Under the pieces are notes generated by a model. That model saw only the letters and a list, made by a program, of their open reading frames with translations. It searched no databases and was not told where the DNA came from. A stretch of DNA of 48,864 nucleotides from Candidatus Micrarchaeia archaeon (GTDB taxonomy: Archaea; Micrarchaeota; Micrarchaeia; Micrarchaeales; Micrarchaeaceae), in the NCBI GenBank assembly GCA_049964795.1, contig JBMFWY010000006.1:1-48864 (forward strand), read 5' to 3'. The translations under genes were made by a program, and so were the position numbers. The stretch's first letter is position 1. Each line of letters opens with the position of its first letter. Shown here piece after piece: positions 3,424 through 26,632 of the stretch.

Positions 3424-5148
3424 ATGAGCATTGATTTTAAATCGGCAAAAAAGTTTGTCGGAAGAGATAAAGAGAAGGGTATTTATCTAATTTTAGCAAT
3501 AATAGTGGCTTACGATTTGTTTCGCGCAGCGACTCATATCCTTGGACCTACATATTTAAGCGAAGATTTTGCGTATGTTCTTTCGGCTTTTTCGGTCTTG
3601 CGTGGCTATATTAACATTGGATTTTCGATAGATTCGACAAGAATCTTACAATATCTGCCCATAGCGCTATTTTACAGGTTGTTTGGAATTAATATTTACA
3701 CTTCATCCGCCTGGAATGTGATTGCGTACATTGGGACGGTAATAATTACGTTTTTTGTAGGAAAAGAAGTGTATAATTCCAAGGCGGGGCTAGTGGCAGC
3801 CCTTCTCATAAGCTTCTTCACTCCTGTAGTGAAAAACTCCGTAACCGTGGGAATAAACGAAGCCATGATGTTTTTTGTCTCTCTGGCGATGCTTGCTGTA
3901 CTTTATGGGCATGACAAGCGTTCGGCGTATTGGATCTTTGCCGCAGGTTTTCTTGCAGTTATGGCACAGCTAACTATACCAATAGCACTTATTGCGCTGC
4001 TTGGCACTGTGATATATGTATTGGTGGAGTATCTAAGGAAAAACATCTCTATTAGAATAGTGTCCTGGTTTTTTGCTGGGATAATCGTTGCTGCTTTGAT
4101 AGTGGCGCTGTTTAGCTATGCTAATACAGGAGATCCGCTTGTAATTATACATCAAAATAGTGTCTATTACTCAAACTTGTCAATGACATCCACAACCTAT
4201 GGCATAATAGGTAACGTGCCTAGCCACTTTCAAAACCAATCGGGGAACAACTTGATAGCATACCTTATGTTTTATCCGAATGTGATGTTTAACTTCTATA
4301 TTTTGCACGCAATTAGGAACGCAATTTTCACTAAAAACTTAAATCCTGTTTCTATATGGAATAATGCTTATAAAATAAATACTAATAACGACGGGCTATA
4401 TTTTTACGCGGTTTTGCTTGCTTCTCTCATACTTTTAATCCTGGAAGATAAAAAAGTCTACTTTCCGCTACTTTGGCTGGGAGTTGGCCTTGGCTTCTTG
4501 GATTTTGCACCTATGTCAATAAGCCTGTTTCCTTTCAGGTATATACTTTCCTTTAGAGCACTTAGATATACTACTGCAGTAGCTGTGCCTATCGCAGTCA
4601 TACTAAGCATAGCGATAGTTAGGATTATGCAGGGGGATCAATCGCCCAAACAAAATGGGCATAGGCACAGGAAAGAAGAAGAGTATAAAAAAGTGATAAG
4701 AGGTATAGCCGCAGTCGCAATAATAGTTTTCCTTGTGGCAACTTCGATACCCCTAAACGAAATGTGGTACCAATTCGTAAAATTTCAGATTTATCCTCTG
4801 CAGGTCATATCAAACTATTTGAATACTAGGAGCAATATTAGCGGAATTTTTGTCGAGTTTAACTTTTACCCTTTCATGACAGTATATTTGAATAGGAATA
4901 ATTCTGACATATTATACCAATACTATCCGTCCTACAATTGCACAGATATGGAACCAGGGTCATATATTATTATACCAAACATTACTTCGCTAGGTCTTAC
5001 CTCTTCAACTGTGTTCATGGAAAATGCGACCAAGGTTTGTCCTAATTTAAAGCTAGTTATGACAGTGAATGCGACCAGATCGCAGACCAGCCTCCTTTAT
5101 GGAATTTCGCCACTTTCATACCAAGAAAAACTTTATTACTATAGTTGA
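3424..5148 (+). CDS. Polytopic membrane glycosyltransferase, GT-C fold (PMT/ArnT-like)
   Basis: Many hydrophobic segments, acidic ED in the first external loop (YLSEDFAY), RY motif late in the membrane domain, C-terminal extracellular domain with N-x-S/T sequons. Confidence 0.72.
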   Translation: MSIDFKSAKKFVGRDKEKGIYLILAIIVAYDLFRAATHILGPTYLSEDFAYVLSAFSVLRGYINIGFSIDSTRILQYLPIALFYRLFGINIYTSSAWNVIAYIGTVIITFFVGKEVYNSKAGLVAALLISFFTPVVKNSVTVGINEAMMFFVSLAMLAVLYGHDKRSAYWIFAAGFLAVMAQLTIPIALIALLGTVIYVLVEYLRKNISIRIVSWFFAGIIVAALIVALFSYANTGDPLVIIHQNSVYYSNLSMTSTTYGIIGNVPSHFQNQSGNNLIAYLMFYPNVMFNFYILHAIRNAIFTKNLNPVSIWNNAYKINTNNDGLYFYAVLLASLILLILEDKKVYFPLLWLGVGLGFLDFAPMSISLFPFRYILSFRALRYTTAVAVPIAVILSIAIVRIMQGDQSPKQNGHRHRKEEEYKKVIRGIAAVAIIVFLVATSIPLNEMWYQFVKFQIYPLQVISNYLNTRSNISGIFVEFNFYPFMTVYLNRNNSDILYQYYPSYNCTDMEPGSYIIIPNITSLGLTSSTVFMENATKVCPNLKLVMTVNATRSQTSLLYGISPLSYQEKLYYYS

Positions 5149-5293
5149 AAGCGTTAGGCTCTAATTTTGCAGAATTATGCAAGGCTTCGCAAGCGCTGCG
5201 CATCCAGATAGGAAGCAATTGATAAATAAGTATTTAAACTTATACCTGCATAAAATAAAGTATATTTTACTACAAGGTGGGTGGATGGGAGGC

Positions 5294-5725
5294 ATGCGGT
5301 TGAAGACAAGAGAGAGGTGCGATAAAGTGCACAAGGATTTTAGTTTGGAGAGCACAATATTCTTCGCAAAATCGCTAGGCAATAAGCTAGGGCAATTGCT
5401 AATTCCAACGATGTTGCTGCTCTTCTTGCTCCATCTTTCTTATGGCGCGACTAATACCTCCCTGCTTTCGCAGCTGAGCTATATAAAAATAGTGCTTTCG
5501 CAGGTTGGGCCTGCTTTGAGTGCTGTACTTTTTGTCATAGCGGGAATATTTTACGCCATAGGGCAGATGCTTCCTCCAGACAAAAAAGCGAACTTCCACA
5601 CTACGGCAATAAACATTATAATAGGAGCAATTGTCGTAGGTGCGTTGAGCATAGCATCTACATCTTTGGCTGTGGCCTCTACCCACCTTCTTGACAACTT
5701 GACTGTCGCTAACAGTGCGGTCTGA
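5294..5725 (+). CDS. VirB2/TrbC-like pilin-type membrane protein (start uncertain)
   Basis: Signal-like segment ending SYGA, then two hydrophobic helices separated by a short basic loop (GQMLPPDKKANF). First gene of the ATPase operon. Confidence 0.55.
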   Translation: MRLKTRERCDKVHKDFSLESTIFFAKSLGNKLGQLLIPTMLLLFLLHLSYGATNTSLLSQLSYIKIVLSQVGPALSAVLFVIAGIFYAIGQMLPPDKKANFHTTAINIIIGAIVVGALSIASTSLAVASTHLLDNLTVANSAV

Positions 5726-5738
5726 GAGGCAATGAGAG

Positions 5739-6779
5739 GTGGATTGCTTGGCTTATTTTGCAGGTTATGCTATAGCAGTAAGTATTATAGGGATCATGTT
5801 AGCCGCTGGAGGGATAATGCTTGGGCTAGGCTATTCATTGGATGATAAAAAACTTAAGGAATGGGGAAGGAATGAACTCTTCCAATCGGTGGCAAATGGA
5901 ATAATTGTAGGGGCGCTATTGCTGGCATTCAGCCCAGGAGGGGCTGTAGTATCATTGATAAATTCGATGACGAGAATACAAAATACAAGCCTCTGCACAG
6001 GGGCCCTAAGCTCCAACTATGCTATATGCTTTGCATACAACTATCTTTCAGGGCTTGGCTCCATAACTGTAAATGGAGTTCAGCACCAAGAGTTATTGGG
6101 CTCGGCATTGACCCTTCTAGCCCCCCTATCAATCCTGTACGTCGTGCTTGGTGTTATTGGCGCATTGAAGATAGGAATAGGTGTAGTATCTTTCTCCTTC
6201 TCAGGCTTGCTTAACCCGTTGCTTTCACAGATCAACTATGCAATAAGCGCAATAGTTTTTGCGATAACAGGCATCGAAGTTCAGGCGGTGCTACTGAAAT
6301 TTGTTGGAATGACAGCTGTGCCGATACTCCTCCCTGTAGGAATTGTGCTAAGGGCCTTTTATTTCACGAGAAGGTTAGGAGGCGCCATAATGGCAATAGC
6401 AATAGGGCTTTTTGCGGTATTTCCTCTCACTTATTTGCTTGATGCGCAGCTCTCTTCTGGCTATTCAAGCATGATAAACTCAAGCAGCATAAATTCCTTG
6501 ATAACAAATTCTACCCAAGCAAAGCAAGTGCTTTCAGAAGAAAGCTTAGGAAGCAACACGATAAGCTTGAACTTTCTGAATCCTTTGCTTGGCATGCTCG
6601 AGCCGCTTGTGGCCAGCATAGAAAATGCCGTGGAAAAGCTGCTAAACTATATAGCGCTGTTGATTGTGGAGGTATTTTTCCTCCCGACTTTTAGCATAAT
6701 ACTCACGATTATCTCGATAAGGGAACTGGCGAGGATACTTGGCACTGAAGTTTCTTTTGGCAAATTTGATGTTTTTTAG
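5739..6779 (+). CDS. Polytopic membrane protein, VirB6/CedA-like
   Basis: About 7-8 hydrophobic segments with S/N-rich external loops; GIVLRAFYFTRRLGGAIMAIAIG segment; operon context. Confidence 0.55.
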   Translation: MDCLAYFAGYAIAVSIIGIMLAAGGIMLGLGYSLDDKKLKEWGRNELFQSVANGIIVGALLLAFSPGGAVVSLINSMTRIQNTSLCTGALSSNYAICFAYNYLSGLGSITVNGVQHQELLGSALTLLAPLSILYVVLGVIGALKIGIGVVSFSFSGLLNPLLSQINYAISAIVFAITGIEVQAVLLKFVGMTAVPILLPVGIVLRAFYFTRRLGGAIMAIAIGLFAVFPLTYLLDAQLSSGYSSMINSSSINSLITNSTQAKQVLSEESLGSNTISLNFLNPLLGMLEPLVASIENAVEKLLNYIALLIVEVFFLPTFSIILTIISIRELARILGTEVSFGKFDVF

Positions 6780-6786
6780 CGATTGA

Positions 6787-7536
6787 ATGGGCAAATGGGA
6801 CTTTTTTGAATATGGAATGCTAGGAGCTGCTTTAGGAGTGCTTGCCTTAGCGGCATTTTTTGGAGTTTACGCGCTACTCGGCGCAGCGTTGCTGCTGGCC
6901 TCTTTGGCAGTTTTGCACTATTCTGACCCTTATTTGGAGGCAATCCTCCTTAAGTATGGAAATATTACTGAAAAAATTGGCATGTACGAAATAAGTGGAG
7001 AGAGGGAGGTTGCAACAAGGAAAGAGGGTGGCAAGTATATAGCAACAGCATGCGTCATTATAAGTGTAAAAGACAATTCGGGCGATATTGAAAAAAGCAG
7101 GCTTGAGGAGCTCATTTCGCGCCTTGCATTCCCTTTCAAATTTACCATTGCCGTTGAGAGGCTGAATACCAAAAAGATGCTTGACTCACTTCAAACAAAA
7201 AAGGGTATGAGGGAAATAGAGCTTTCGAGAATAGGAAACACAAGCAATGGGAGGGAGCTGGCAAAATCTATGAGACTAAAGAGGGAAATCGAGATATTGG
7301 AGCATGAAATCAAGAGCATAAGCACAGGATCTATGCCTTTAAAGGTGAACTATTATGCCATTACCAGCGCCGAGAGCGATAAGAAGTTCATGGCAGAGGA
7401 GCAGGCGCTTTTAAGGGCTAGGGAGCTTGCTACTTCCTTTGATGGTGCGATTGGTACATTTTCTGCGATTGCAAAAGGCAGCATGCTGAAGAAGGTGCTG
7501 ATGTTTGACATGACAGGTGAAAGCTTTGGTTATTGA
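6787..7536 (+). CDS. Membrane-anchored protein with coiled coil (possible VirB3/VirB4 N-terminal-like)
   Basis: N-terminal hydrophobic hairpin, charged soluble domain, overlaps the downstream ATPase gene. Confidence 0.55.
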   Translation: MGKWDFFEYGMLGAALGVLALAAFFGVYALLGAALLLASLAVLHYSDPYLEAILLKYGNITEKIGMYEISGEREVATRKEGGKYIATACVIISVKDNSGDIEKSRLEELISRLAFPFKFTIAVERLNTKKMLDSLQTKKGMREIELSRIGNTSNGRELAKSMRLKREIEILEHEIKSISTGSMPLKVNYYAITSAESDKKFMAEEQALLRARELATSFDGAIGTFSAIAKGSMLKKVLMFDMTGESFGY

Positions 7537-8881
7537 GAAGCATTGCCAGGGAAATGCCAGGGAAGTTGCCGGAAGAATGGCTATTTTTGGGAGATCTGAG
7601 CCTGTAGAAGAGTTCGAAGGCAAAGGAATATACATAGGTAGGGGCTTGATCTACAAGTCACCGATAATAATACGGTTTGACAAACTGATCAACCCGCATG
7701 TTTCAATAATAGGGATGAGCGGGGCAGGCAAAAGCTATCTGCTAAAAAGCATGATAATCAGAAGGCGCATATTGGAAGGGATCAACATATTTGCGATGGA
7801 TTGGAATGGAGAATACAATGATACAATAGAGTTTCTCTCTGGCACGCCACACAAAATCGGCATTGGCTGCAAAATTGGCATGAATTTTTTAAGAGACAAA
7901 AACAAAACGCTTGATTGCATTGCAGAATCGGTATCACATGCGATCGGCATGGAAGCGAATGATAGCAAGGCTATAAGGCAATCAGTGCAGGAGGTGCTTG
8001 AGAGAGGCAATGGAAGGGAAGAAATGGCGAAAGAAAAACTGCGAGACGAGAAAATTTTATCCCAGATCGAAAGGCTGCATCTCCAAAAGTTCTTTTCTGA
8101 AGTAGGCTGCAAGATAGAGGAGCTGCTTAATGGCGCAAGCAGCATTGACTTGTCAAGCATGGAAAATGACATGCAAAGGGAGATAATCGTGCATTTCATA
8201 CTGCAGTCGCTTGTCGAACACATGCACGGTCTAAAGGTAAATGGCAAGAGTAAATTGATGTTTATACTTGATGAGGCATGGAGGAGCATAAATGACAGGC
8301 AACTGTTGCATAGGATTTACAGGGAAGGCAGAAAATATGGCATAGGGGTTGTGACAGCTACGCAGCATGCCAGCGACATAGATGACGGCATACTTGCAAG
8401 CTCGGCATGCATTTTCATTTTTAAAATGCAGGGAGGAGGCTTAGGCACCCTTGCAGAGAAAGGCTTCATAGGGAAAAAAGAGGCTGAGACGCTTGAGAGT
8501 TCTGGAGTTGGCAAATGTGCAATAAGGCTTTCGTATAAGAACGGCACTGCAAAGCCGTTCTTCGTTGACAAGGTAGACGGATTCCTTGTTGGAGTTGCAA
8601 GGCTAAATTATGGTGGTAACATGCACATGGAGATACCTTTCGAGCAGATTGAAAATATAGCAAAAAGGCTTGGGCTAAGCCAAAAACAAAGCGAAGACAT
8701 AAGAGCTATGGCAGAAGAGGCAGAGGGCGAGATTGACATCGTCGAATTTATTAGGAAGCTTCTTTCGATAGGGCTTGATAGGCCCACAGTAATATCGTTT
8801 TTCAGGCTTCTGGGCTTAAATGACATAGCAATCGTGAGGGCGTATGAAAATGCAAAAGGACACAAACAATTACTCAAATAG
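7526..8881 (+). CDS. HerA/VirB4-family P-loop ATPase
   Basis: NPHVSIIGMSGAGKS Walker A, FILDEAW Walker B, REGRKYGIGVVTATQ Arg-finger/Gln motif. TTG start after AGGTGA (alternative GTG at 7517). Confidence 0.88.
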   Translation: MVIEKHCQGNAREVAGRMAIFGRSEPVEEFEGKGIYIGRGLIYKSPIIIRFDKLINPHVSIIGMSGAGKSYLLKSMIIRRRILEGINIFAMDWNGEYNDTIEFLSGTPHKIGIGCKIGMNFLRDKNKTLDCIAESVSHAIGMEANDSKAIRQSVQEVLERGNGREEMAKEKLRDEKILSQIERLHLQKFFSEVGCKIEELLNGASSIDLSSMENDMQREIIVHFILQSLVEHMHGLKVNGKSKLMFILDEAWRSINDRQLLHRIYREGRKYGIGVVTATQHASDIDDGILASSACIFIFKMQGGGLGTLAEKGFIGKKEAETLESSGVGKCAIRLSYKNGTAKPFFVDKVDGFLVGVARLNYGGNMHMEIPFEQIENIAKRLGLSQKQSEDIRAMAEEAEGEIDIVEFIRKLLSIGLDRPTVISFFRLLGLNDIAIVRAYENAKGHKQLLK

Positions 8882-9515
8882 TGAAAAGGCGTTATTCAGC
8901 ACTTCGTTCGTTGCCAAGGCGGAGCTAAAATGCGATTTTGGCTTGCTGGAAAAGACTCTTGAGGAGCTGCCTGCGCTTAAAAAAGCTTCGTACGGGAGCA
9001 GGCTTGCCTACAACATAATCGAGCTGCCTAATGGCGTTAGCAATAACGCGGAAATCTGTTTCGAACGAAACACCATTACTTACAAGGCGTATTTTTCAGA
9101 ATATCGGAGAATAGGATATAGAAAAGAGCTGCTCAAGTTCCTATCACTGCTTGGTTATACCAAAAAGCTCTACCAAGTAGATTTTTCCTCGATTTACGGC
9201 TATATTATAGAAGCATTGCACGTTGAGGAAATCGTCCCAAGCTTAAATCAAGGGTGCAAAAGCGCAGAAGAAAAGCTTGTTGTAGTTAAAAGGGTGAATG
9301 TTGAGCTTGCACAGAAATTGATTGGCGACGATATAGAGATTGCTGCGCTTCGCAGAAGGATTTCTAACTACGAGGCCTTTTTAAGTGAGCTTGCAGAAGC
9401 GATTGAAATGAAAGGGGGATATACGCTGGAAAATCTAATGGAAAAAATAGGCATGCAGGAAAAATTTGCTGAATTGCGCAAGTCCGATGCAATACAACAA
9501 AGAGATAGCAAATAG
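8844..9515 (+). CDS. Hypothetical soluble protein with C-terminal coiled coil
   Basis: 223-aa ORF overlapping the ATPase stop, same strand. Confidence 0.65.
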   Translation: MKMQKDTNNYSNSEKALFSTSFVAKAELKCDFGLLEKTLEELPALKKASYGSRLAYNIIELPNGVSNNAEICFERNTITYKAYFSEYRRIGYRKELLKFLSLLGYTKKLYQVDFSSIYGYIIEALHVEEIVPSLNQGCKSAEEKLVVVKRVNVELAQKLIGDDIEIAALRRRISNYEAFLSELAEAIEMKGGYTLENLMEKIGMQEKFAELRKSDAIQQRDSK

Positions 9516-9528
9516 CAATGGTATTTTT

Positions 9529-10350
9529 ATGAAGCGTACGACGGATTTGGCAAAACTTCTCTTGGCATTTGCGTTTACTGTGATAACCGCATGGCTCGGC
9601 GCCTTCGGGAATATAAGCGGAGCGATTGAAAACTTCAAAGGCCTGTTCTATATAATGGCTGGCGTTGGGGTATTTATTATTCTGTCTAAATTCGGAGTGC
9701 GCTCGAAAGGCGGCATAAAATTGAGATATGATAATTATATAGACACGGAAGAATTGGACTCGATGCATAAAAATATAGGCAAGGAAAATGCAGAGTTGGC
9801 AAGAAAAAATGCAATGCTCCACAACAACAGGATATTTGCAGTAAAAGGCCTTGCGATAAGGGTTAGTGAACTGCGTAGTTACTTTAATGACGCGCCTGGC
9901 TTTCAAGAGGGCGCGTTTGCGGTTGAAGAAGAAATAGAAAATGTTGCTATAAGGCTTTGGAAAGATGGCATTGTGTGCATTGCAGGAGATTACTTTATCG
10001 GATCGCGAAGAAGCGCAATTGCAAGGATGCTCTACGACAATTATATTGCGGGAGTTGACAATTGCTGCGTAAGCCAAAGGCCAGAAGATTTTTTACGAAT
10101 GCTTAATGGCTACTTCAATGCAAAAGAAGGAAGCAACACTAGGAAAAATTTGGTAGCAGATAGAAGCGCGAGAGAATTTTGGCCTAGGATAGAATTTGCA
10201 AACAAATTCTACAGGTCTAAGATCGTTTCAAGCTTGCTTTCTTTTGAGGAAAAAGGCGTATTCGCTCTGTTTATGCTGCTCACTGGTTATGTAAAAGTTA
10301 TAGATGGAGAGCAAGCGAAGCGATCGGACGCAACATTGAATTATGTATGA
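9529..10350 (+). CDS. Hypothetical membrane protein (2 N-terminal TM segments plus soluble domain)
   Basis: MKRTTD start 13 nt after the previous stop; two hydrophobic helices. Confidence 0.65.
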   Translation: MKRTTDLAKLLLAFAFTVITAWLGAFGNISGAIENFKGLFYIMAGVGVFIILSKFGVRSKGGIKLRYDNYIDTEELDSMHKNIGKENAELARKNAMLHNNRIFAVKGLAIRVSELRSYFNDAPGFQEGAFAVEEEIENVAIRLWKDGIVCIAGDYFIGSRRSAIARMLYDNYIAGVDNCCVSQRPEDFLRMLNGYFNAKEGSNTRKNLVADRSAREFWPRIEFANKFYRSKIVSSLLSFEEKGVFALFMLLTGYVKVIDGEQAKRSDATLNYV

Positions 10351-10359
10351 AGTGGGTCT

Positions 10360-10563
10360 ATGCTTGACGCATATGTGGAGGTAATTTCGTTGGGGCTCAC
10401 TACTTCGCTCCTAATGCTAAACTTGGCATTGCTAGAAAACATTGCCGGCAATCTTTCGAGGAATGAAACATTTATCGAATATGGAAAGCGCACGCTTTAT
10501 GGAGCCATACTGCTGGCTGCGATATGCTTAGCTGTAGCAAAAATAGGGTGGTTTCGTGTTTGA
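10360..10563 (+). CDS. Small 2-TM membrane protein
   Basis: 67-aa hydrophobic ORF tightly packed in the operon. Confidence 0.6.
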   Translation: MLDAYVEVISLGLTTSLLMLNLALLENIAGNLSRNETFIEYGKRTLYGAILLAAICLAVAKIGWFRV

Positions 10564-10840
10564 GCATATAGGCAAGGAATTTGGAGCGAATAATGTATAT
10601 GGAGAATTGTTCATAGGTGTCGTTTCTTCTGGCATGGTACTTTTTCTGGCTTACTTCGTTGGATTTGCGATTGGCGTTGGCATACCAAGGCTTGGGATGC
10701 TAGTTTCATTGATGTTTTCAGGTTTTTTATTTTCCTTCGCTGTAGCACACAGGCAAAAGGCAATGATAACCCGCATAGACGCAGCCTCGATGATTGTCTC
10801 ACTTCTTTTTTCGCTTATTATAATAGCAGTTTTGGGATGA
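10556..10840 (+). CDS. Small 3-TM membrane protein
   Basis: 94-aa hydrophobic ORF; GGTGG RBS before GTG; overlaps the previous stop. Confidence 0.62.
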   Translation: MFEHIGKEFGANNVYGELFIGVVSSGMVLFLAYFVGFAIGVGIPRLGMLVSLMFSGFLFSFAVAHRQKAMITRIDAASMIVSLLFSLIIIAVLG

Positions 10841-10844
10841 GCGC

Positions 10845-13091
10845 ATGACGCTATCATTTTATAAAGTAAGCTCCTTGCCTGACAAGGACTTTGACAGAAT
10901 TGTTTTGACGGAGGCTGCGGCGGGATCACCTTTGGCAATTATATACGATCTTGAGAAAGGCTTTACTGCCTTTGGCATAAACACCAACAAAGAGAGCAGC
11001 ATAGACTTTTTGATGAAGGCTATACCAGGACTTGAATTTTCCAAAATAGAAGGTTATGGCAAGGAGCCGGTGGAGTTTGAGCTTATGTCGGTATTCAGGA
11101 AGAAGGAGGCGCTTTCACAAAGTCTGCTCGAAGATTCATTTAGGCTTGGCGAGAATCGCGGCTTTCTAGGAATTGTTTTTCTCCCTGTTTCAGGAAGGGA
11201 GCTGCATGAATCGAAAAGAAGCATAGAGAAATCGCTTGAAAAAATGGGAGTAAAAGAAACGGCGTCATTTACAAATGCAAGCTTGGCAGGAAGAGCAAGC
11301 AATTCAATACAGAAAGATATAGTAAGCAATTCTGAAGAAAGGCTTTTGCTTGGCGAAGTGCTTGAATCAATCAACAACGCGGTGCTTAATGGCGCGGCTA
11401 CTTACAAGATAGGGATAATCTCCAGCAAATTGGACAAGCTTAGCGAATTTGCAAGGTCCAAATTCCTGCTTTTGGGAAAAGTGGAATGCAGGATTAGGCT
11501 GCAGGATCTTGACAAGCTTGGCATTAAAGCTTTCCCGGTGGGGCCTGACAAAGCGGCAGACCTGATCAGGTTCTACAAAGCAGGCAAGCTTAACTACCTT
11601 GTAAACACCGAAGAGCCTGACAGCAGGGGGGACATACCTGTTGGCACCTTTATGGAGGAGGGAGTTCATGATACTGGCTACAAAGTGTCGATTGACGGCT
11701 CACTGCTAAATCTGGGTATGATAATAACAGGGTTGCCTGGATCTGGAAAAACCTTTGAAACCATGCAGATAATAAACGCAGTGGCAAAAAATAGGACAAA
11801 GAGGGTTATTGTAATAGCGCCTACTGATGAGTGGAACGAATTTGCAAGGAACACAGGCATGCATTTGATAAGGATTTATGAGGATCGTGTGCCCCTAAAT
11901 TTTTTCAGGTGTGCTGAAGGCGTTGAAAGACCCGTTTTTTACGAAGATCTTGCAATGTTGCTTTCATCAGCGAGTGATGCGGGTCCGTATAGAAACCCAA
12001 TGGAAAAATGCATGCTAAACGCTTTCAAACGTGTTTATGACAAAGAAAGCAATCCCGATCCGGTAGAGGCATACGAAGAGATAGAGGAATCGATAATAAG
12101 GCTTCATGGGAAAAAGACAAACGTTGGGATAAAATACACAAAGCATGGGGAGAATATAAAATCTGCGCTGGAGAACTTAAGGAGCATATTGCGTAGGCCT
12201 GAATACTCTTCCAGGCAAGGAGTAAAATTCGAAGAGCTGATAGAGCAGGGAGTAGTCTTCGATCTTTCAAAGGTAAGCAACAAGTTCAAGCCTTATCTGT
12301 ACGCGCTTTTGCTGAACCAGGCATATATGCTTGCAAATCTTCTGGATACGCGAGGTGACAATGAACTACGCTTGCTTATATGCCTTGAAGAGGCACAGGT
12401 TGTATTGGGGCAAAGGCAGGGCAACGCTGCCGCCGAAGACCTTAAATATAGGATACAGGATTTTAGGAAGAAAGGGGTTGGACTTGTGCTGCTTGCACAC
12501 AGTGTAGATGATATAGACAGAAACATAAGGAGGCTTTGCCAGATAAAGCTTTACTTAAAGCAGGCGCCTGACGTAGCTGAGATAGCTGCTGAAGACTTAG
12601 TATTTACACGTGCAGAGAGGGATCAAGTCATTGCGAAGCTTAAACATCTGGATTCCAGAGTAGGGGCACTGAACTATATGGTGAGAGAGGGCAACGAGAA
12701 AATTGCAAAGGACACCGTTTTCATACGCACCTTGGATTTCGAAGAAAAATTGATTGAAGGCAATACCTTGCATTCAAAAACAATAGAGAATTTTGGATTG
12801 ATGCCAGAAGCCTCAAAAACAATAGAAGCTTTGATAAGCATAAGCCGGAGAAAGGGCAAGGCAGAAAACACAGGATTGGGAGAGACAAAAATTGAAAGAG
12901 AATTAAAATTGAGGATAAGCTATTTATGCGAAACGATAGCAGAACACAGAATTATGCTTGGAGAACGCTTTGAGATAATGGAAGAAATGACAGAGGGGAG
13001 GCCGTACAAGATAGAGCTGATAGACGAAAAGAAGAAAACAGTTTATAGCAATAGGCTGCTGGCACAGAATCGCATTAATATAGAGATATGA
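10845..13091 (+). CDS. Large HerA/VirB4/VirD4-superfamily ATPase (DUF87-like)
   Basis: ITGLPGSGKT Walker A, LLICLEEAQ Walker B variant, DFRKKGVGLVLLAH motif. Confidence 0.82.
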   Translation: MTLSFYKVSSLPDKDFDRIVLTEAAAGSPLAIIYDLEKGFTAFGINTNKESSIDFLMKAIPGLEFSKIEGYGKEPVEFELMSVFRKKEALSQSLLEDSFRLGENRGFLGIVFLPVSGRELHESKRSIEKSLEKMGVKETASFTNASLAGRASNSIQKDIVSNSEERLLLGEVLESINNAVLNGAATYKIGIISSKLDKLSEFARSKFLLLGKVECRIRLQDLDKLGIKAFPVGPDKAADLIRFYKAGKLNYLVNTEEPDSRGDIPVGTFMEEGVHDTGYKVSIDGSLLNLGMIITGLPGSGKTFETMQIINAVAKNRTKRVIVIAPTDEWNEFARNTGMHLIRIYEDRVPLNFFRCAEGVERPVFYEDLAMLLSSASDAGPYRNPMEKCMLNAFKRVYDKESNPDPVEAYEEIEESIIRLHGKKTNVGIKYTKHGENIKSALENLRSILRRPEYSSRQGVKFEELIEQGVVFDLSKVSNKFKPYLYALLLNQAYMLANLLDTRGDNELRLLICLEEAQVVLGQRQGNAAAEDLKYRIQDFRKKGVGLVLLAHSVDDIDRNIRRLCQIKLYLKQAPDVAEIAAEDLVFTRAERDQVIAKLKHLDSRVGALNYMVREGNEKIAKDTVFIRTLDFEEKLIEGNTLHSKTIENFGLMPEASKTIEALISISRRKGKAENTGLGETKIERELKLRISYLCETIAEHRIMLGERFEIMEEMTEGRPYKIELIDEKKKTVYSNRLLAQNRINIEI

Positions 13092-15137: not shown

Positions 15138-15248
15138 TTTTCCATTTGTTTGCCTGTTGTGCCCTTTCAGGGCTTTTGTACCCTGCATATTTATTGCATC
15201 TATTGAATTCCGTTTATTTAAACCGGTTTGTAAAGCGTGGCGATCTTC

Positions 15249-16349
15249 ATGGAAAACGACAAAAATGTAAGCAAAATGCTTGAGGAATTTGGCAAGGATA
15301 TAACCTTGCAGATAGAAAAAGGCAAGAATCCTTCTTTCGAAACTACTTCGAGGACGCGATCAAATATAACTTATGATGAAAAGGAAGGATTTCTAAGGCT
15401 GGGCAATGCAACAGAGGAGAGGAATTTCATAAATATAGCCCAGACAAAAAGGTTCATGCAGACAATTGCAATCGCAGGGAAATGCCACAAATTCATAAAG
15501 GAAAATCTCCACACTTCGATAAGGGGTCTCTTTTATCAGCTCAAGTACTCGCTTGGAGAGGATATAGATGAAAATATATTCAATGAGCAGAGCGAATCCA
15601 ATCCGCTGATAGAGGATTTGGAAGCAGCGCTTGGGGTAAGAAGAGAGGATTTGCACCTCAATGCAAACAGGAAGGGGGTGCTTGTCGGAAACATGAAGGT
15701 AGTTGATACTTTTGAAAATGAAGAGTTAGAGATAGATACAAGCAAGATGGGAAGAAGCGGGTGGAGCATACCGAGCGATGTTGACAACGACATAGAATTC
15801 GTAGATATAAAGGCGAAATATGTAATAGTAGTGGAGAAAGATGCCCTGTGGCAAAGGCTTAATGAAGATGGATTTTGGAGAAAAGAAAATGCGATACTAA
15901 TCTCGCCGCAAGGCCAAGCTTCAAGAGGCACAAGGCGAATGCTCAGGAAACTTGCAGACGAGGGATTACCTATTTACGTTTTCAACGACTGCGATGCCTG
16001 GGGATGGTATATATATTGGACGATAAAGACAGGAAGCATGAACTTGGCGTACATCGGCAAGGACATCGCGACTCCGGAAGCGCGATTCATAGGAGTGACG
16101 ATGTCGGACTTGGAAAGATACGATTTCCTGCAAAAAATGACTATGAAAGCGAACGACGTTGACATCAAGAGGGCGCAGGAGATGCTGTCATATCCTTGGA
16201 TAAGCAGGCACAAGGAATGGGTTGAGGAGCTAAAGAAAGTGATAAAGACCAAAAAGAAGCTTGAGCAAGACACGCTGCAGGGACCAAGGCTTACTTTTGT
16301 AGACGATTATATAAAGGATAAGATAAAAAGCAAGGAGTTCCTGCCATAA
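15249..16349 (+). CDS. top6A: DNA topoisomerase VI subunit A
   Basis: IRGLFY catalytic Tyr, VVEKDA and FNDCDAWG TOPRIM motifs, KLEQ motif. Alternative GTG start at 15237. Confidence 0.95.
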   Translation: MENDKNVSKMLEEFGKDITLQIEKGKNPSFETTSRTRSNITYDEKEGFLRLGNATEERNFINIAQTKRFMQTIAIAGKCHKFIKENLHTSIRGLFYQLKYSLGEDIDENIFNEQSESNPLIEDLEAALGVRREDLHLNANRKGVLVGNMKVVDTFENEELEIDTSKMGRSGWSIPSDVDNDIEFVDIKAKYVIVVEKDALWQRLNEDGFWRKENAILISPQGQASRGTRRMLRKLADEGLPIYVFNDCDAWGWYIYWTIKTGSMNLAYIGKDIATPEARFIGVTMSDLERYDFLQKMTMKANDVDIKRAQEMLSYPWISRHKEWVEELKKVIKTKKKLEQDTLQGPRLTFVDDYIKDKIKSKEFLP

Positions 16350-19374: not shown

Positions 19375-21885
19375 TCACTTCTTGAACTTCGCGATAAGCT
19401 CCTTTGTTGGATCTATCCCGTCGCCTCCGTAGATAGTCTGTATCAAAGAACCGCTTGCATCCCTGACGCGCAGGTTTGTATCTACGTAGAAGTCCTGAAC
19501 CGCGTTTAGCACTCTCCTGTACATGTAACCGCTTACAGGCACAATCAGCTGCTTTGAGACTGAAGAGTCCCTCGAACCCATGCCGTGCATATAGTATTCC
19601 TCTATATTTATTCCTTCCATAAAGCTGGAGTCTACGAAGCCGTGCGCGCGTGGATTTGCGCTGCCCTTCTTGAAGAATGGCAGGACCCTGCCTGAATAGC
19701 CTCTTGACGGCCTTCTGCCCCTCACATCTTGCTGGCCCAGGAACATTATTGTTTGCACGAAGTTTATGATATTCCCTCTTGCTCCTATAGACGCCATAAG
19801 ATTGGCGTTGTTTTCGTTGGTCAGCTCTTTCTTAAGCAGCTTGCTTGCGGTAGTTCTTGTTTCCCTGAGTATAAGGCCAGTTAGCAACTCGAGTGTTTCT
19901 TTCCTAGTATTGCCTAGAAGAGGCTCAAGCTTGCCCTCCTTGTAGCTCTTTATCAATGCCTTGACTTTCGACTTTGCTTCGTGCAAAATCTTCTCCTTCT
20001 CGTTTTCCAGCTCCGCGGAATTGTAATAATCTTTTAGGCTTATGGTAAATCCGTGGATGTATGCTACTGCAAGAGCCACTTTCATTGCTTTTAGCATGAA
20101 CTCGGCAGTGAAATCAGATCCGTAATCCTTGTATATCTTTACAAGCAATGGGGAATTTTCCGATGCCGCAACCAAATCCTTTGAGATTACGCCTTCGGTT
20201 ATTATGCCATTCTTTATCACAAATTTGCCTCCCGAAGCACTTACTTCAAGATTGAAGTCTTTTGGAAGCAGCATTGAGAATATGGCCTTGCCAGAGTATG
20301 TGCCGTTTTTCTCCGCTTTTGGCATGTCAAATATACCGGCGCTTGAAAGTATTCTCATTGCTTCGTCCTTGCTGAAATAGGCGCCGTCCTTGGTCAAGAA
20401 ATAAAGCCCTACGAGCTCATCTTCCTCAAACGCCATTATAGGCTTGCCGTCCCTTGGCGAGAGGAGCTGCTCTTCCGAACTCATGAGGATTCTTGCTTCA
20501 GCTTGGGCCTCCAACGATTGCGGAACGTGCAGGTTCATGTCGTCCCCGTCGAAGTCGGCGTTATAGGGGTTTGTCGCAGCAACATGCAAGCGCAAGACCT
20601 TCCCTGGCAGCACCTTCACCTTGTGTGCCATTATGGAGATCCTGTGCAGTGTTGGCTGTCTGTTAAAAAGCACTATGTCATTGTCGCTAAGCTGCCTTTC
20701 TATGATATAGCCAGGGGCAAGCTCCTTCATCAAATCTTCGCGATTAAGCTCCGTTACCCTTTTCCTTATTCCCTCGCGGGTAATTACGTTTATTGCAAGA
20801 GGGTATTCTGTGCGCCCGAGGAATTCGCGCATGTAATCTATGTTCCACTGGGTCACGTACATCGGCACGGTAAGCACTGAAGCGATCTTTAGGGGTACGC
20901 CTACTTGACCTATCCTTAGGCTTCCGTCAGCAGCGATTACGGATCTTGCTGAAAAGTTGACTCTCTTTCCGCTCAGGTTGTATCTTAGCCTGCCCTCCTT
21001 GCCCTTAAGCCTTTGCGCAAAAGTCTTCAGGGGCCTCGAGCTTCTGTGCCTTGCGACAGGCACGCCGGGGGTCTCGTTATTGAAGTATGTAGTAACATGA
21101 TACTGCAAAAGCTCCCACAAATCATCTATTATAATCTGTGGCGTTCCTGCGTCTATGTCCTGCTCGAGCTTCTTGTTTATCCTTATTATCTCTACAAGCT
21201 TGTGCGTAAGGTCGTCCTCACTTCTCTCTCCTGTTTCCAATGTTATTGAAGGCCTTACATTTACAGGAGGCACAAGCAGATAGGTAAGCACAAGCCATTC
21301 GGGCCTGAATATGCTCGGATCCATGCCAAGAAGCCTTATGTCCTCATCAGGAATCTTTGAAAGCCAGTCTCTTATTTCGTCAGGCTTTATTCGCTCTCCG
21401 TCAAGATAGAACATTGTCGGCCTTTCAAATTTGACCTTTTTCTGCTTTGCGCCGCAATGCGGGCACTTGTTGGAAATTTTAAGCTTCTTCTCCTTTTCTG
21501 GAGCCACCTCGTTACCTTCTGCAATATCCTCCAGTTCTATCTTTTTCTTCTCTATCTGGTCGTCGCTGACTAAAAGCCTGTGGCACTTGTCACATGTGGA
21601 CTGGAGCATCAAATAGATAGCCTTTGCAAATTCAGAGTGTATGACTGGCCTTACAAGCTCTATGTGCCCAAAATGACCAGGGCATGTTTTTGAAGAGCCA
21701 CCGCACGTCTTGCACCTGAAGCCTGGATCAACTACCCCGAGCCTCTGGTCTATTACTCCGCCGTCTATAGGATAGCCGTCTTCGTTGTACGTATCAGGCA
21801 CTATAAGCTTGGCTACGCTGATTTTTTTTATGAGCTCCGGGCTCATTATCATGAACTGTATATTCTTTATAGATTCGGCCTGCAT
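19375..21885 (-). CDS. rpoA1: RNA polymerase subunit A' (Rpo1N)
   Basis: [39 protein letters not shown]. Confidence 0.98.
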
Positions 21886-21891
21886 GCAAAA

Positions 21892-23718
21892 TCACTCGCT
21901 TTCAACTTTCATGTTCGTCCTTATGTGAAGAGAATTTATCTCGTAAAGCAAAAGTTTGAATGCGTTGCTTATCTCAATGCGTTCCAAATTGTTGCCTCCG
22001 CACATTGGGCATACCGGCACGTTCTTTATGTAGTTGAAATATCCAATGTCGCCGCAGTCCTTGCAAACCCATACCGAAGTCTTGTCGCTCTGCTCTAGCA
22101 TTCTCTCCTTCAGGAGCAAGCTTGCGCCGTGTCCTACCAATGCATCTCTTTCCATTTCTCCGAACCTCATGCCTCCGCCCCTTGCCTTTCCTTCCGTAGG
22201 CTGCCTCGTGAGAATCTGGACAGGTCCCCTGCTTCTGACTTGGAGGTGATTTATTGTCATATGGTAAAGCCGGTTGTAGTAAACCACGCCCATGAAAACC
22301 TTGGATTGGAAGCTCTTGCCAGTCCTTCCATCATAAAGCACTTCATCTCCAAACTTGTCAAAGCCGTAAGATTCAAGCTCCTTCCCAAAATTTTCCATTG
22401 CTTCGACGCCATCAACTGAGAAAGTGGTGCCGTCTATATACTTTCCTGCAAGCGATGCTGCTTTCACGCCTAGCATCTCGAGCATGTGTCCTACTGTCAT
22501 TCTGCTAGGAAGGCTGTGCGGATTAAGGATCAAGTCAGGCACTATACCTTCGCGGGTAAATGGCAGATCCTCTTGGTTTACTATCAGCGCGACTACACCT
22601 TTTTGCCCGTGTCTGCTCGCAAATTTATCGCCGAGCTCTGGAATCGTTATGCTTCTTACCCTGACTTTCACTATTTTTGTAGCCCCTGAGGTCTCGCTAA
22701 GTAGCACGTTATCGACAACGCCATCTTCCCCCATTCTAAGGGTTGTGGAATTATCCATGTTCTTTTCCTCGCTTATGCCGAAAGAGGTCTGCTCTTCAAG
22801 GAACCTTGGCGGAGAGGTTTTGCCTATAAGAACATCGCCCTCGTGCACCTCGGTCTCCTTTTCTATTATGCCGTCTTCGCTGAGCTTTGCGTATGCGTGC
22901 TCGCCGAGATAGCCGTCAGTAGAAGGCAGGGGAACTCGTATCTTATCCTTTTGGCCTCCTGGATATCTCCTCTCTTCATCGGAATATGTCCTGAAGAAGA
23001 CGCTGCGACCCAAGCCGCGATCTACTGCTGCCTTGTTAAGCACTACCGCATCCTTCATGTTGTACCCGTAGTAGGTCGATAGCGCAACAACAAAATTCTG
23101 GCCCGAAGGATGCTTCTCCATTTTAAGGGAGCGGTATGCTACGCTTGTTAGTATTGGCATTTGAGGATAAAAAAGCATGTAAGCCCTTGCATCGTACCTG
23201 TTGTTGAAATTGAATGCGTAGACGCCTTGGCTTTGCTTCATGAAGTTCATGTTTATTGCGTGCCTTCCCATCTGGTTGTGGTCCATGTATACATTCAAGT
23301 TTGCGGTAAGGCCGAGCATGTAAACTGGGTCTATGACAAGATGCGTAGTTTCCGGTGTTATTTTGTCCTCGCTTGTTGCTATCAGCGCATCTTCCTCTTC
23401 TTCCGCGTCAAGGTATTCGATTACGCCTCTTCTTACAAGATAGTTGAAATCTATCTCGTTGTTTGCGAGCTTTTGCTTAAGCTCGGGGGTAAACTTGCTT
23501 GCACCATTTTCTACTATTATATAAGGCGCCCTTACCCTACCCTTGTCTATGTTGAGATGAACCTCATTGAGCTTTTTAGAATAAAAGATGTTGACTTCGC
23601 CTGATATCAAACCCTGCCTTCTGTTTTTCTTGATTTCGTTTACAAACGCCTCCCCGTCGGCTACGCGCGTCAGCTCTTTGCCGTTCAGGTATACCCTGCA
23701 TTTTTTATCTTCGCTCAA
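21892..23718 (-). CDS. rpoB1: RNA polymerase subunit B' (Rpo2C)
   Basis: GDKFASRHGQKG, PSRMT, RQPTEGKARGGGMRFGEMERD, C-terminal Zn finger; TTG start. Confidence 0.97.
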   Translation of the reverse strand: MSEDKKCRVYLNGKELTRVADGEAFVNEIKKNRRQGLISGEVNIFYSKKLNEVHLNIDKGRVRAPYIIVENGASKFTPELKQKLANNEIDFNYLVRRGVIEYLDAEEEEDALIATSEDKITPETTHLVIDPVYMLGLTANLNVYMDHNQMGRHAINMNFMKQSQGVYAFNFNNRYDARAYMLFYPQMPILTSVAYRSLKMEKHPSGQNFVVALSTYYGYNMKDAVVLNKAAVDRGLGRSVFFRTYSDEERRYPGGQKDKIRVPLPSTDGYLGEHAYAKLSEDGIIEKETEVHEGDVLIGKTSPPRFLEEQTSFGISEEKNMDNSTTLRMGEDGVVDNVLLSETSGATKIVKVRVRSITIPELGDKFASRHGQKGVVALIVNQEDLPFTREGIVPDLILNPHSLPSRMTVGHMLEMLGVKAASLAGKYIDGTTFSVDGVEAMENFGKELESYGFDKFGDEVLYDGRTGKSFQSKVFMGVVYYNRLYHMTINHLQVRSRGPVQILTRQPTEGKARGGGMRFGEMERDALVGHGASLLLKERMLEQSDKTSVWVCKDCGDIGYFNYIKNVPVCPMCGGNNLERIEISNAFKLLLYEINSLHIRTNMKVESE

Positions 23719-23741
23719 GCAAACACTCCTATAAACTTTAA

Positions 23742-25205
23742 TTAAAGCAGCTTCAGTTCCTTTAGCTTGCCCTTAAGCTGCTCTTCGTCAGCGCCAAAAG
23801 AAACTCTTGCAGTTATTGAGAGATATCTTGTAAGGCCAACTTCACCGCCCTCTGGCGTTTCGCTGGGGCAGATTTTGCCGAGATGGGTGCCGTGTATGTC
23901 CCTCGCCTTGAAATGTGCGTGCTTTTTGGCGAGAGGCGATTTTATCCTGCGCAAATGCGCAAGAGTGCTAATCATGTTTATCCTGTCAAGCACTTGCGAT
24001 ACTCCTGTATAGCCGCCTGGCCACGCACCCGTGCCCATCGAATAGAGAATCTTGTCGGTAAGCGTATCTGGATTTATGCTTGTTCTCACCGAGAGCTTCC
24101 TTCCTCTTGCAGTAGTCTTTTCGACATGGTACTTTATGTCCTGCACAAAAGACTTGAAAGCTTCGTTGAAAAGGTCTTCAAGCAAATCTCCCGCAAACCT
24201 CACGCGCTTGTTGGCATAATGGTCCTTGTCGTCCTGCTTTATGTAATTGTACGCTATCAGCGAATTCTTTTCGGCCATTCTCAACAGGAAATAAGCCTTG
24301 CTCTTCCTGCTTTCCTCAGTTACCCCAAGATGCGGCAGAAGGTAGGTATCAATCTGCATCTCAGCGCGCTTTTCCTGATAGCTCTTAGACTGGCTTGGAA
24401 CTGTTATCTTGCCCAACTCACCGAGCGCTTCTGCGATGCCCATTTCTTTTGCCTTGCTCGTCTCTATGTTGAGCATGAAGTCATTTTTGACATCCTCGTT
24501 TGAAGTGCTTTCGATTATCTCATTCATGCTCAAGCCCATTGCGCGCAGCACGAGTATCAAATCAATGCCTTTTGTAACTTTAGGGAATGAAACCGTGAAT
24601 ATACCATAAGCGTCCCTCTCTACGCTGCACCTGCTCTTGAAATTCAAAGTTGTTGAGAATATTTTTGAAACTACTGTTTTCCCATCCTTGGAGCTCATCA
24701 CACGGTTTGGAGCAAGATCCTCTATACCTATTAGCACGCGCTCTGTCCCCCTTATTATGAAATAGCCCCCGGGGTCGTCAGGATCTTCCCCGTTTCTTAT
24801 CAGCTGCTCCCTCGTCATGTTCTTCAAGTAGCACAGATTGCTTTTCACCATGACAGGAAGCTCCCCTATGAAGACCTCACCTGCGCTATCGAGCTTCTCT
24901 ATGTTGCTTATCATAGGCACGTATGTTATGTACATGGCCGCCGCGTACGTCAAATTGCGCGCGATTGCCTCGTTAGGAGTTATGTTTCTAGTAGAACTGT
25001 CAACCTCTATGACTCTGGGCTGCTCAAGCCTTATGTTGCCAAGCTTTATTGCAAAATCAGACACGTCTGGCTCTATAAGGCTGTGGTTCTCTATGATCTT
25101 AGGAAGCGTTACGCTTACAAACCTGTTGTAGCTTTCTATCTGGTGCTGCACTACGGAATTAGATTTCAAGTACGATTCGATCAGTTCATGGCTAGAGCCT
25201 ATCAT
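23742..25205 (-). CDS. rpoB2: RNA polymerase subunit B'' (Rpo2N)
   Basis: DPGGYFIIRGTERV, DDKDHYANKR, GVSQVLDR, CPSETPEG. Confidence 0.97.
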   Translation of the reverse strand: MIGSSHELIESYLKSNSVVQHQIESYNRFVSVTLPKIIENHSLIEPDVSDFAIKLGNIRLEQPRVIEVDSSTRNITPNEAIARNLTYAAAMYITYVPMISNIEKLDSAGEVFIGELPVMVKSNLCYLKNMTREQLIRNGEDPDDPGGYFIIRGTERVLIGIEDLAPNRVMSSKDGKTVVSKIFSTTLNFKSRCSVERDAYGIFTVSFPKVTKGIDLILVLRAMGLSMNEIIESTSNEDVKNDFMLNIETSKAKEMGIAEALGELGKITVPSQSKSYQEKRAEMQIDTYLLPHLGVTEESRKSKAYFLLRMAEKNSLIAYNYIKQDDKDHYANKRVRFAGDLLEDLFNEAFKSFVQDIKYHVEKTTARGRKLSVRTSINPDTLTDKILYSMGTGAWPGGYTGVSQVLDRINMISTLAHLRRIKSPLAKKHAHFKARDIHGTHLGKICPSETPEGGEVGLTRYLSITARVSFGADEEQLKGKLKELKLL

Positions 25206-25231
25206 GCAATTTCACCTGATTTAAAAAGGCG

Positions 25232-25459
25232 TTATGCCTCGTCTACTACTACGCGGTAGTAGACATACTTTCCCGTAGGGTCGTCTCGGTATATCGCGAC
25301 AAGCTGGCCTGGCTTTGGATTTAACTTTGCTATTTGCGGGTCGGTCTTAAGTATGCGCGGAAACTTGTCCAAAGGGGTAGCCAGTTTTTTAATTACCTCC
25401 TGTGCCTTTTTGTCGTCAAGCAGTTCATGCTTGACCACAATATCGAAATCATAATCCAA
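25232..25459 (-). CDS. rpoH: RNA polymerase subunit H (Rpo5)
   Basis: KHELL...PRILKTDP...YYRVVV; TTG start after GGTGA; first gene of the rpo operon. Confidence 0.92.
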   Translation of the reverse strand: MDYDFDIVVKHELLDDKKAQEVIKKLATPLDKFPRILKTDPQIAKLNPKPGQLVAIYRDDPTGKYVYYRVVVDEA

Positions 25460-25649
25460 CAGCTCACCAAAAGGCGCAATCAATAGAGAGCAGAGCATCT
25501 CGTGCTGAAGCGGGCCTCAATCTTCTATCTTTTGAGATAGGAAACAAATAAATACCTTATGAAAATATGCGTTTATCTAGGGAATAGCGGAAACTTTGTG
25601 ATTTTGCAGCTTGCAAGGGTTCCCCTGCTTTAAATATGCTTTGGGGAAG

Positions 25650-26601: not shown

Positions 26602-26632
26602 TAAAATCAAGATGGCGGCGCTGATAACGCTC

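Follow-up and report, generated by a model that had tools for sequence, protein, structure and literature searches.

The closest described relatives of the system reported here are domesticated type IV secretion systems (T4SSs) encoded in archaeal chromosomes. The available accounts of the Ced system of Sulfolobales (CedA, CedA1, CedA2, CedB, and CedD) describe a chromosomal, relaxase-less apparatus with a VirB2-like pilin, a VirB6-like polytopic protein, and two ATPases of the HerA/VirB4 type. The Ted system of Thermoproteales (TedA, TedB, and TedC) is also a domesticated T4SS, and combines a pilin, a channel, and an ATPase. Here, we analyzed a 48,864-nt stretch of DNA from Candidatus Micrarchaeia archaeon (GenBank assembly GCA_049964795.1, contig JBMFWY010000006.1, positions 1-48,864; hereafter, the window), and focused on a cluster of nine genes on its plus strand, g1 to g9 (5285 or 5294-13091). 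An earlier interpretation made from the letters alone (the sequence-only reading) had attributed the cluster to a DPANN archaeon and proposed a T4SS/Ced-like membrane machine that might serve attachment, uptake of DNA or nucleotides, or effector delivery. The source organism is indeed a member of the Micrarchaeota, and the overall proposal is supported by the conservation of the cluster, the pilin similarity of g1, and an ATPase, g4, whose nearest family is CedB. We consider it probable that the locus encodes a T4SS-derived apparatus, chromosomal and inherited vertically, of the same kind as Ced and Ted and likely used for contact-dependent transfer of macromolecules. We read this domesticated apparatus as a third archaeal kind beside those two.

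Like Ced, the locus is chromosomal and relaxase-less, and combines a VirB2-like pilin (g1), a polytopic protein that is a candidate VirB6 counterpart (g2), and two HerA/VirB4-type ATPases, for which the best curated families are CedB (g4) and CedD (g9). It departs from Ced in that g4 attains one tenth of the CedB equivalog cut-off (72 vs 700 bits), the membrane parts show no similarity that the tools used here could detect, the proposed anchor (g3) and the motor (g4) are separate genes, g5-g8 have no known Ced counterpart, and all genes lie in one operon. In addition, the leader of g1 resembles a signal peptide, whereas Ced pilins are described as unprocessed in the published accounts available to us. 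The signal peptide of TedC, according to a similarly partial source, is apparently cleaved by signal peptidase I, as the g1 leader also suggests, and the components of Ted and of the present locus are alike in being unrecognizable by sequence between systems. Compared by description only, the locus differs from Ted in belonging to a DPANN lineage and in having four additional small proteins and a further large ATPase. In bacteria, the Patescibacteria offer a parallel: the accessible literature presents them as an ultra-small, host-dependent lineage with near-universal chromosomal T4SSs (MPF-FATA-derived), VirB2-like pilins, and usually no relaxase. Their systems have a canonical, full-length VirB4 that is detectable with hidden Markov models, whereas the ATPases here are far more divergent. 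Two other candidates were rejected, namely the predicted archaeal secretion system of Makarova et al. (2015), which in the part of that work at hand is built on MoxR ATPases and immunoglobulin-like surface-layer proteins, and the SPEARE-type giant proteins of Nanohaloarchaea with VirB4/TraG-like domains, which have a different architecture.

We found no description of such a system in Micrarchaeota in the literature, with the qualification that Supplementary Table 2 of the Mia14 genome paper may list the genes. In their accessible portions, the Ced/Ted paper does not mention DPANN, the CedD papers deal with Sulfolobales only, the archaeal section of a 2025 review of T4SS nomenclature covers conjugative plasmids only, and the Mia14 genome paper names type IV pili, Sec, and Tat. 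The main text of the ARM-1 paper, as available, makes no mention of secretion, pili, conjugation, VirB, HerA, or DNA uptake, and that of a 2025 comparative paper on Micrarchaeota, likewise available in part, none of secretion, pili, conjugation, HerA, or DNA uptake. A T4SS-like system in Micrarchaeota thus appears not to have been described before. How DPANN archaea and their hosts physically exchange material is an open question, for which the locus is a concrete candidate. It would widen the set of domesticated archaeal T4SSs by a third, very divergent family, and would parallel the T4SSs of the ultra-small Patescibacteria, suggesting that episymbionts of the two domains converged on conjugation machinery.

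A nine-gene locus conserved across an order of Micrarchaeota

The window is the entire contig C6 of a 724,721-bp Micrarchaeota assembly (G000; 34 contigs, 91.6% complete). Its nine plus-strand open reading frames (ORFs) are tightly packed. According to the ORF list, the junctions from g1 to g5 are gaps of 13 and 7 nt followed by overlaps of 20 and 38 nt, and those from g6 to g9 are a gap of 9 nt, an overlap of 8 nt, and a gap of 4 nt; g5 and g6 overlap by 50 nt, or are 13 nt apart if g6 starts at ATG 9529. The sequence-only description of nine co-oriented genes with overlaps or gaps of at most 13 nt agrees with these junctions. A hydropathy scan placed transmembrane (TM) segments in g1, g2, g3, g6, g7, and g8, the six membrane proteins expected from that description, and none in g4, g5, and g9.

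Matches to g9 were found in 31 of 40 related genomes at 35-68% identity (by family, 17/24 in f1, 0/1 in f2, and 14/15 in f3). Twenty of these 31 loci were fetched and all nine proteins mapped. The order g1-g9 was intact in 16 of them, with similar lengths and TM counts and with genes that overlap or nearly abut, and contig ends interrupt two others (L051 and L052). Because 16 of 20 genomes keep all nine frames open and identically ordered, the nine ORFs cannot be attributed to chance. Among 27 public Micrarchaeota contigs, some of which belong to the same genomes as the mapped loci, 19 extend at least 6.8 kb upstream of g9, and 17 of these carry g1-g5 in order. Cluster conservation had been named beforehand as a test of the T4SS-like proposal, which it passed with these counts. 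The genes that flank the cluster vary between genera.

The g2 profile reached further: of 301 genomes sampled from the phylum, 266 gave a match, a count in which the unpublished G054 and G204 are included. Matches were strong (E < 1e-80) in most genomes of f1 and f3, and weaker in other families, with 7-8 per genome. Adjacent g1-g2 pairs occur in further families (G041, G130, and G090). The g2 orthologue of G013 corresponds to the NCBI protein of Candidatus Mancarchaeum acidiphilum; since this locus-bearing relative, strain Mia14, is in co-culture, the proposal is open to experiment.

T4SS-like genes mostly reside on mobile elements, and the locus could accordingly be an integrated conjugative element or a plasmid-derived transfer region, either remnant or active. 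The Mia14 paper, in the part available, deems membrane proteins in genomic islands likely conjugative elements, and a tRNA-Glu gene lies 5 kb upstream of the locus. As the sequence-only reading had noted on inspection for integrase, relaxase, and NurA, we found no match at E ≤ 0.01 in the 91.6%-complete assembly for Phage_integrase (PF00589), Relaxase (PF03432), T4SS-DNA_transf (VirD4/TraG; PF02534), or NurA, all of which gave matches in control genomes. The orthologues are 35-68% identical across two families and keep their order, the guanine-plus-cytosine content is level throughout the region, and a tblastn search of g4 against 72,556 plasmids returned only matches of 22-24% identity over partial lengths. 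The locus is therefore best regarded as a chromosomal, vertically inherited system, given its conservation across the order, the absence of mobile genes, and the poor plasmid matches. It has neither relaxase nor integrase and lacks the defining features of an integrative conjugative element, an origin that we find barely credible.

A pilin and a polytopic membrane protein

Gene g1 (5285-5725, plus strand) encodes a VirB2/TrbC-type pilin precursor, as judged from Pfam matches, topology, and alignment. At E ≤ 0.01, the T4SS_pilin family matched 14 of 17 orthologues (best E 5.4e-7) and TrbC matched 8 of 17; for the window protein, the E values were 2e-4 and 4e-3, respectively. The protein has a signal-peptide-like N-terminus with an AxA-like site and two TM helices separated by a charged loop. 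In the orthologue alignment, a variable hydrophobic leader with an AxA-like end precedes a strongly conserved two-helix core. Profiles and topology thus identify in g1 the VirB2/TrbC-type pilin of the Ced/Ted kind, with the window protein itself scoring below the family cut-off. A C-terminal N-x-S/T sequon stands at the same position in 16 of 17 orthologues, with N135 invariant (window 5690-5710), which suggests that the C-terminus may be exposed and N-glycosylated. Directly upstream of g1 lies a gene for a PMT_2-family glycosyltransferase (3424-5148).

The start of g1 is more likely 5285 than 5294 or 5177. A ribosome-binding-like site, GGTGG (5276-5280, plus strand), precedes position 5285, and an AT-rich box that resembles a promoter, AAGTATTTAAAC (5228-5239, plus strand), lies ~45 nt 5′ of this start; since the segment 5177-5284 holds both elements, a start at 5177 is unlikely. 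AT-rich boxes (…TATTTAAATATTTAT…) resembling that of the window lie upstream of the g1 orthologues in most relatives. In many of these (L037-L056, ~30-100 nt before the g1 start), the TATTTAAATATTTAT box is followed by a near-palindromic TACTAAAGTAAAT, and the two elements are perhaps a promoter plus an operator. A palindrome of the TACTAAAGTAAAT type is not evident in the window. The idea of a regulon was dropped, as a genome-wide search with the promoter-plus-palindrome pattern gave three loose matches, none of them at the paralogous second locus described below.

Gene g2 (5739-6779, plus strand), with ~8-10 TM helices, is a candidate VirB6/CedA/TedA-like channel or platform. It had no match in Pfam or NCBIfam, and all relatives found by sequence search are unannotated. 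The AlphaFold model reached a predicted local distance difference test (pLDDT) of 73.6 and a predicted template modelling score (pTM) of 0.63. Foldseek returned nothing for it at E ≤ 0.001, with TrwI/VirB6 (7o3v_J) showing the top TM-scores of the list at E 1.1, and VirB6 was the top structural match at a Z score that the comparison tool rates as ambiguous for helical proteins. Hence, of the T4SS-like membrane parts that the sequence-only reading had foreseen, the pilin held up, and the VirB6-like part stands at this ambiguous score. The g1 profile matched the N-terminal part of g2 paralogues (II_d, 5e-6; II_b, domain E 5e-5), and this pilin-like N-terminus mirrors the pilin/polytopic relation that Beltran et al., in the portion available, report for CedA/CedA1 and VirB6/VirB2. 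In the ESM Atlas, g2 lies near a Microcaldota cluster (score 0.91) in which 23% of the members carry the Pfam CedA1 (PF27251) label; part of the link may thus already be visible in automatic annotation of some related proteins.

Two ATPases of the HerA/VirB4 superfamily and a candidate anchor

The two ATPases of the FtsK/HerA/VirB4 superfamily recognized by the sequence-only reading are g4 (7517-8881, plus strand) and g9 (10845-13091, plus strand). Both carry Walker A and B motifs and matched the Pfam models DUF87/HerA, AAA_10, TraG-type P-loop, and TrwB. The catalytic motifs are invariant among the orthologues, including, in g4, Walker A, Walker B, and an R-E-G-R-K-Y-G motif. The g4 protein, which ends in a C-terminal helical extension, is nearest CedB and CedD: the window protein matched DUF87 (3.2e-11) in Pfam, and CedB (3.3e-20), CedD (4.5e-17), and VirB4 (2.2e-11) in NCBIfam. 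CedB (NF041017) matched all 17 g4 orthologues (best E 1.3e-23), ahead of the HerA families, and CedD (NF053655) matched 15 of 17 (best E 1.2e-23). All 17 were also matched by the VirB4-like CD1110 family, by TraC, and by HerA_antiphage (best E 1.7e-17). None of these scores comes near the curated cut-offs.

The soluble, 748-aa g9 protein has an N-terminal alpha/beta domain, an ATPase domain (~253-637), and a C-terminal beta domain, and its model is good (pLDDT 85.1, pTM 0.78). Structural matches of the ATPase domain were DndH-C (30.7), VirB4 (4ag5_A, 28.6), TrwB (27.6), HerA (4d2i_B, 25.0), DotL (24.2), and FtsK (16-17). Against full-length TrwK/VirB4, 541 residues were aligned across positions 1-645 of the model (root-mean-square deviation 15.4). 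A VirB4-like ATPase fold, as in systems of the Ced/Ted kind, is therefore present. In NCBIfam, CedD and a VirB4 family each matched 7 of 17 g9 orthologues, and none matched any HerA family. A quick ATPase tree of 41 rows, with long branches flagged and without HerA, CedB, or TedB references, placed g4 and the ATPases of the second locus beside three VirB4 references and g9 in a separate clade; the tree does not settle HerA against VirB4.

Gene g3 (6787-7536, plus strand), which shares 20 nt with g4, encodes an N-terminal TM hairpin followed by a ~190-aa soluble alpha/beta plus coiled-coil domain. Its sole link to a curated family is a weak CedB match at positions 148-197 (E 0.013); in NCBIfam, 1 of 17 orthologues gave a weak CedB match. 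In the ESM Atlas it tends toward TraC-like/PrgI clusters with scores of only 0.76-0.79. Prediction of a complex between g4 and residues 50-249 of g3 gave weak support (score 0.59, vs 0.01 for the best of three controls), with runs sharing at least 69% of contacts and a partner pLDDT of at least 73. Of 80 solved complexes, 58 pass the mark applied, as do 2 of 110 mismatched pairs, and the passes at a score of 0.60 or under comprise 7 of the 80 solved complexes together with both passing mismatches. Together, g3 and g4 look like a membrane-anchored CedB/VirB4-like ATPase. Tentatively, g3 would be the anchor and N-terminal module of g4, which would make it a putative counterpart of VirB3 or of the N-terminal domain of VirB4.

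The HerA-NurA repair system and HerA-based defence systems share the ATPase superfamily and supply strong matches to the g4 profile in the PDB. The present locus differs from them in its six membrane proteins, including a pilin, in the lack of a visible NurA, Sir2, or DUF4297 partner, and in g4, which has merely ~55 residues before Walker A. The HerA families of NCBIfam scored 27.6-30.4 bits, far under their cut-offs of 800-970, and NurA was not found in the assembly; the locus thus lacks the marks of HerA-NurA repair. For the question of repair HerA posed by the sequence-only reading, NCBIfam and the NurA search favor the T4SS-like side, and the ranking of PDB matches given below does not.

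Accessory genes g5-g8

Searches of Pfam and NCBIfam and with profiles assigned g5-g8 to no recognizable family. The g5 protein (8844-9515, plus strand) is soluble, with a C-terminal coiled coil, as the sequence-only reading had it; the only matches are to coiled coils, of the ZapB type for both its paralogue in the second locus (II_l) and, in the PDB, the orthologue profile. The paralogue II_l matches g5 itself at E 7e-10. Gene g6 (9466, or ATG 9529, to 10350, plus strand) encodes a membrane protein in which two TM helices at the N-terminus accompany a soluble domain of variable sequence. It evolves fast, with a mean column identity of 18%, and keeps its position in 16 of 20 loci. The small membrane proteins g7 (10360-10563, plus strand; two TM helices) and g8 (10556-10840, plus strand; three TM helices) are described from hydropathy and alignment, and g7 is conserved by position and topology and weakly by sequence.

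Related loci

A paralogous second locus (locus II) lies on contig C5 of the same assembly (21399-33391; L085 400-12392). It holds six tandem g2 paralogues (E 1.5e-18 to 3e-4), two g3 paralogues (~1e-24) in front of a g4 paralogue (505 aa, 1.3e-78), a coiled-coil gene related to g5, and a small gene, distinct from the g4 paralogue, that matches the C-terminus of g4. A stand-alone pilin gene and counterparts of g6-g9 are missing from it. To judge from the several g2-profile matches per genome in other families of the Micrarchaeia, the multi-paralogue type may be the more widespread one. Loci I and II together span ~20 kb, or nearly 3% of a 0.7-Mb genome.

In another Micrarchaeia family, genome G090 carries a canonical-looking T4SS operon (contig C33; L093 8920-17927, minus strand). 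It resembles the present locus in its gene scheme of pilin, large membrane protein, VirB3/VirB4, small protein, and g9-like ATPase. Its genes encode a pilin, two unassigned proteins of 517 and 314 aa, a PrgI-fused VirB4 (890 aa) with 29% identity over 590 aa to a Bacillota VirB4, a 117-aa protein, and, last in the operon, a g9-like ATPase (1,076 aa; g9 profile 2.3e-64). It differs in that both its pilin and its VirB4 score above the Pfam cut-offs and in that its 517-aa protein is not g2-like, as hhalign found no similarity between it and the g2 profile. Because a g9-like gene closes this pilin-VirB4 operon, the g9 family is tied to T4SSs. A g1-g2-g3-g4 cluster is also present in G090, on contig C30. 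The window genome itself has a fourth ATPase of the HerA/VirB4 superfamily (621 aa; contig C14 8607-10472, minus strand, L086 2608-4473), with CedB as its best NCBIfam match (8.5e-14); its gene stands alone among metabolic genes.

One machine or two modules

Several observations weigh against a single T4SS-derived apparatus. No component of the locus passes any curated family cut-off: the window g1 scores 21.8 bits against 26.6 for T4SS_pilin and also stays below the TrbC cut-off, and g4 scores far below those for CedB (72.2 vs 700 bits) and VirB4 (42.8 vs 643.1 bits). The latter value also leaves g4 outside the canonical VirB4 family (TIGR00929; Pfam CagE_TrbE_VirB/TraC), and with 61.9 bits for g4 and 25.4 bits for g9 against a CedD cut-off of 600, the Ced equivalog cut-offs are not reached. 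As the curated membership tests failed, we set the locus apart from the CedB, CedD, VirB4, and HerA families. Against PDB sequences, the g1 profile had no match, the g2 profile matched only TM regions of ATP-binding cassette (ABC) transporters (E ~2e-3) and nothing relevant, and the g4 profile matched HerA-type defence proteins (5e-21 to 1.4e-15) better than VirB4 (6.7e-12). Since the families rank differently in NCBIfam and the PDB, the g4 sequence alone cannot separate HerA from VirB4. For g3, hhalign found no significant similarity to VirB4 N-terminal regions, with E values of 0.27-0.69 in comparisons with a DUF87 protein from a Sulfolobus plasmid, a VirB4 of Pontibacillus, and the N-terminal half of the VirB4 encoded in G090. 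A fused form of g3 was also absent among the best 150 of its 212 relatives in 1.84 billion representatives, all 150 being stand-alone proteins of 69-283 aa. Finally, the cluster is split in two of the 20 mapped relatives. In G032 (L039), g9 stands alone ~70 kb from g2, and in G004 (L053), which shares its genus with the window genome, g5-g9 are next to lonB and top6A without g1-g4, with g2 on another contig. Because of these two cases, a single machine is not proven.

The same splits are what would be expected if two independent modules lay side by side, with g1-g5 forming a pilus or membrane module and g6-g9 a separate membrane-associated ATPase system, for example in defence or DNA processing. 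This arrangement would also fit the high scores of DndH/DptH-like and HerA-like folds, the lead of HerA-type defence proteins among the PDB matches of g4, and the composition of locus II, which has paralogues of g2, g3, g4, and g5 and lacks g6-g9. It fits poorly with the intact, overlapping or near-abutting g1-g9 order in most of the mapped loci, with the g9-like gene at the end of the G090 pilin-VirB4 operon, and with the failure of the HerA families to match any g9 orthologue, nor did the Pfam scan of the locus and the NurA search of the assembly reveal a Sir2, NurA, or DUF4297-type partner. Overall, two separate modules seem quite improbable to us.

A proposed mode of action and its substrate

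The analysis shows which genes are present and conserved, that g1 resembles pilins, that the ATPases have the folds described and intact catalytic motifs, and that no mobile-element genes were detected; assembly into one machine, pilus formation, substrate, and direction of transport are inferred. In the T4SS-derived apparatus that we favor, the g1 precursor would enter the membrane, its signal peptide would be cleaved, and the resulting two-helix pilin would be polymerized into a conjugative-type pilus. The polytopic, VirB6-like g2 may build the platform or channel at which polymerization takes place, powered by a membrane-anchored CedB/VirB4-like ATPase in which g3 would contribute the TM hairpin and N-terminal module and g4 the motor. 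The TM-free, VirB4/VirD4-like g9 could dock as a second motor on g6-g8 and drive or couple substrate transfer, like CedD beside CedB, with g5 as a putative coiled-coil accessory. The apparatus would serve contact-dependent transfer of macromolecules between the Micrarchaeon and either its host or other cells of its kind, with DNA import as the foremost candidate task in view of the analogy to Ced and Ted.

The same apparatus may instead perform a task other than DNA import, as an attachment pilus or conduit for the uptake or delivery of proteins, lipids, or metabolites. We regard this as possible, if less than likely. The genome is only 725 kb in size and the organism belongs to a host-dependent group; the six tandem g2 paralogues of locus II suggest diversification at a cell-cell interface; and the C-terminal sequon kept in 16 of 17 pilin orthologues points in the same direction. 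For Patescibacteria, the available literature describes T4SS clusters on the chromosome that encode VirB2-like pilins and mostly lack a relaxase, and suggests their co-option for other functions, and the accessible part of a T4SS review describes a pilin array as essential in a cultured Saccharibacterium. On the other hand, the archaeal chromosomal relatives of known function, so far as the accounts at hand cover them, all import DNA (Ced; Ted is proposed to do so), both motors fall within a clade of DNA and substrate translocases, and effector-like genes were not seen beside the locus.

"Pili-like" connections between ARMAN cells and Thermoplasmatales have long been seen. In a more far-reaching version, which we consider unlikely, the operon and locus II would correspond, in DPANN, to the T4SSs of Patescibacteria, as an essential, lineage-wide conduit for host interaction in which g1 forms these connections and host DNA or nucleotides, perhaps along with other macromolecules, are taken up. 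If true, this would explain both the host dependence of the Micrarchaeon and the heavy gene transfer from host to symbiont.

Genomic surroundings

The housekeeping surroundings described by the sequence-only reading were found as stated, with the gene for TFB upstream of the locus and those for LonB and Top6A downstream. Genes for dCTP deaminase and the PMT_2-family glycosyltransferase also lie upstream. The upstream tRNA-Glu (191-265) is the sole tRNA that Rfam reports in the window at its gathering threshold. ARAGORN additionally called an 88-nt tRNA-Leu(CAG) at 26515-26602, which Rfam did not report at that threshold and which may be either a false call or a tRNA that is atypical or contains an intron. 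The top6A gene (15237-16349) lies 2 kb downstream of locus I, and a top6B-like gene, recognized by eye from its N-terminal sequence (contig C5 36026-37660), lies ~2.6 kb downstream of locus II. This placement is possibly a coincidence; the flanks differ in other genera.

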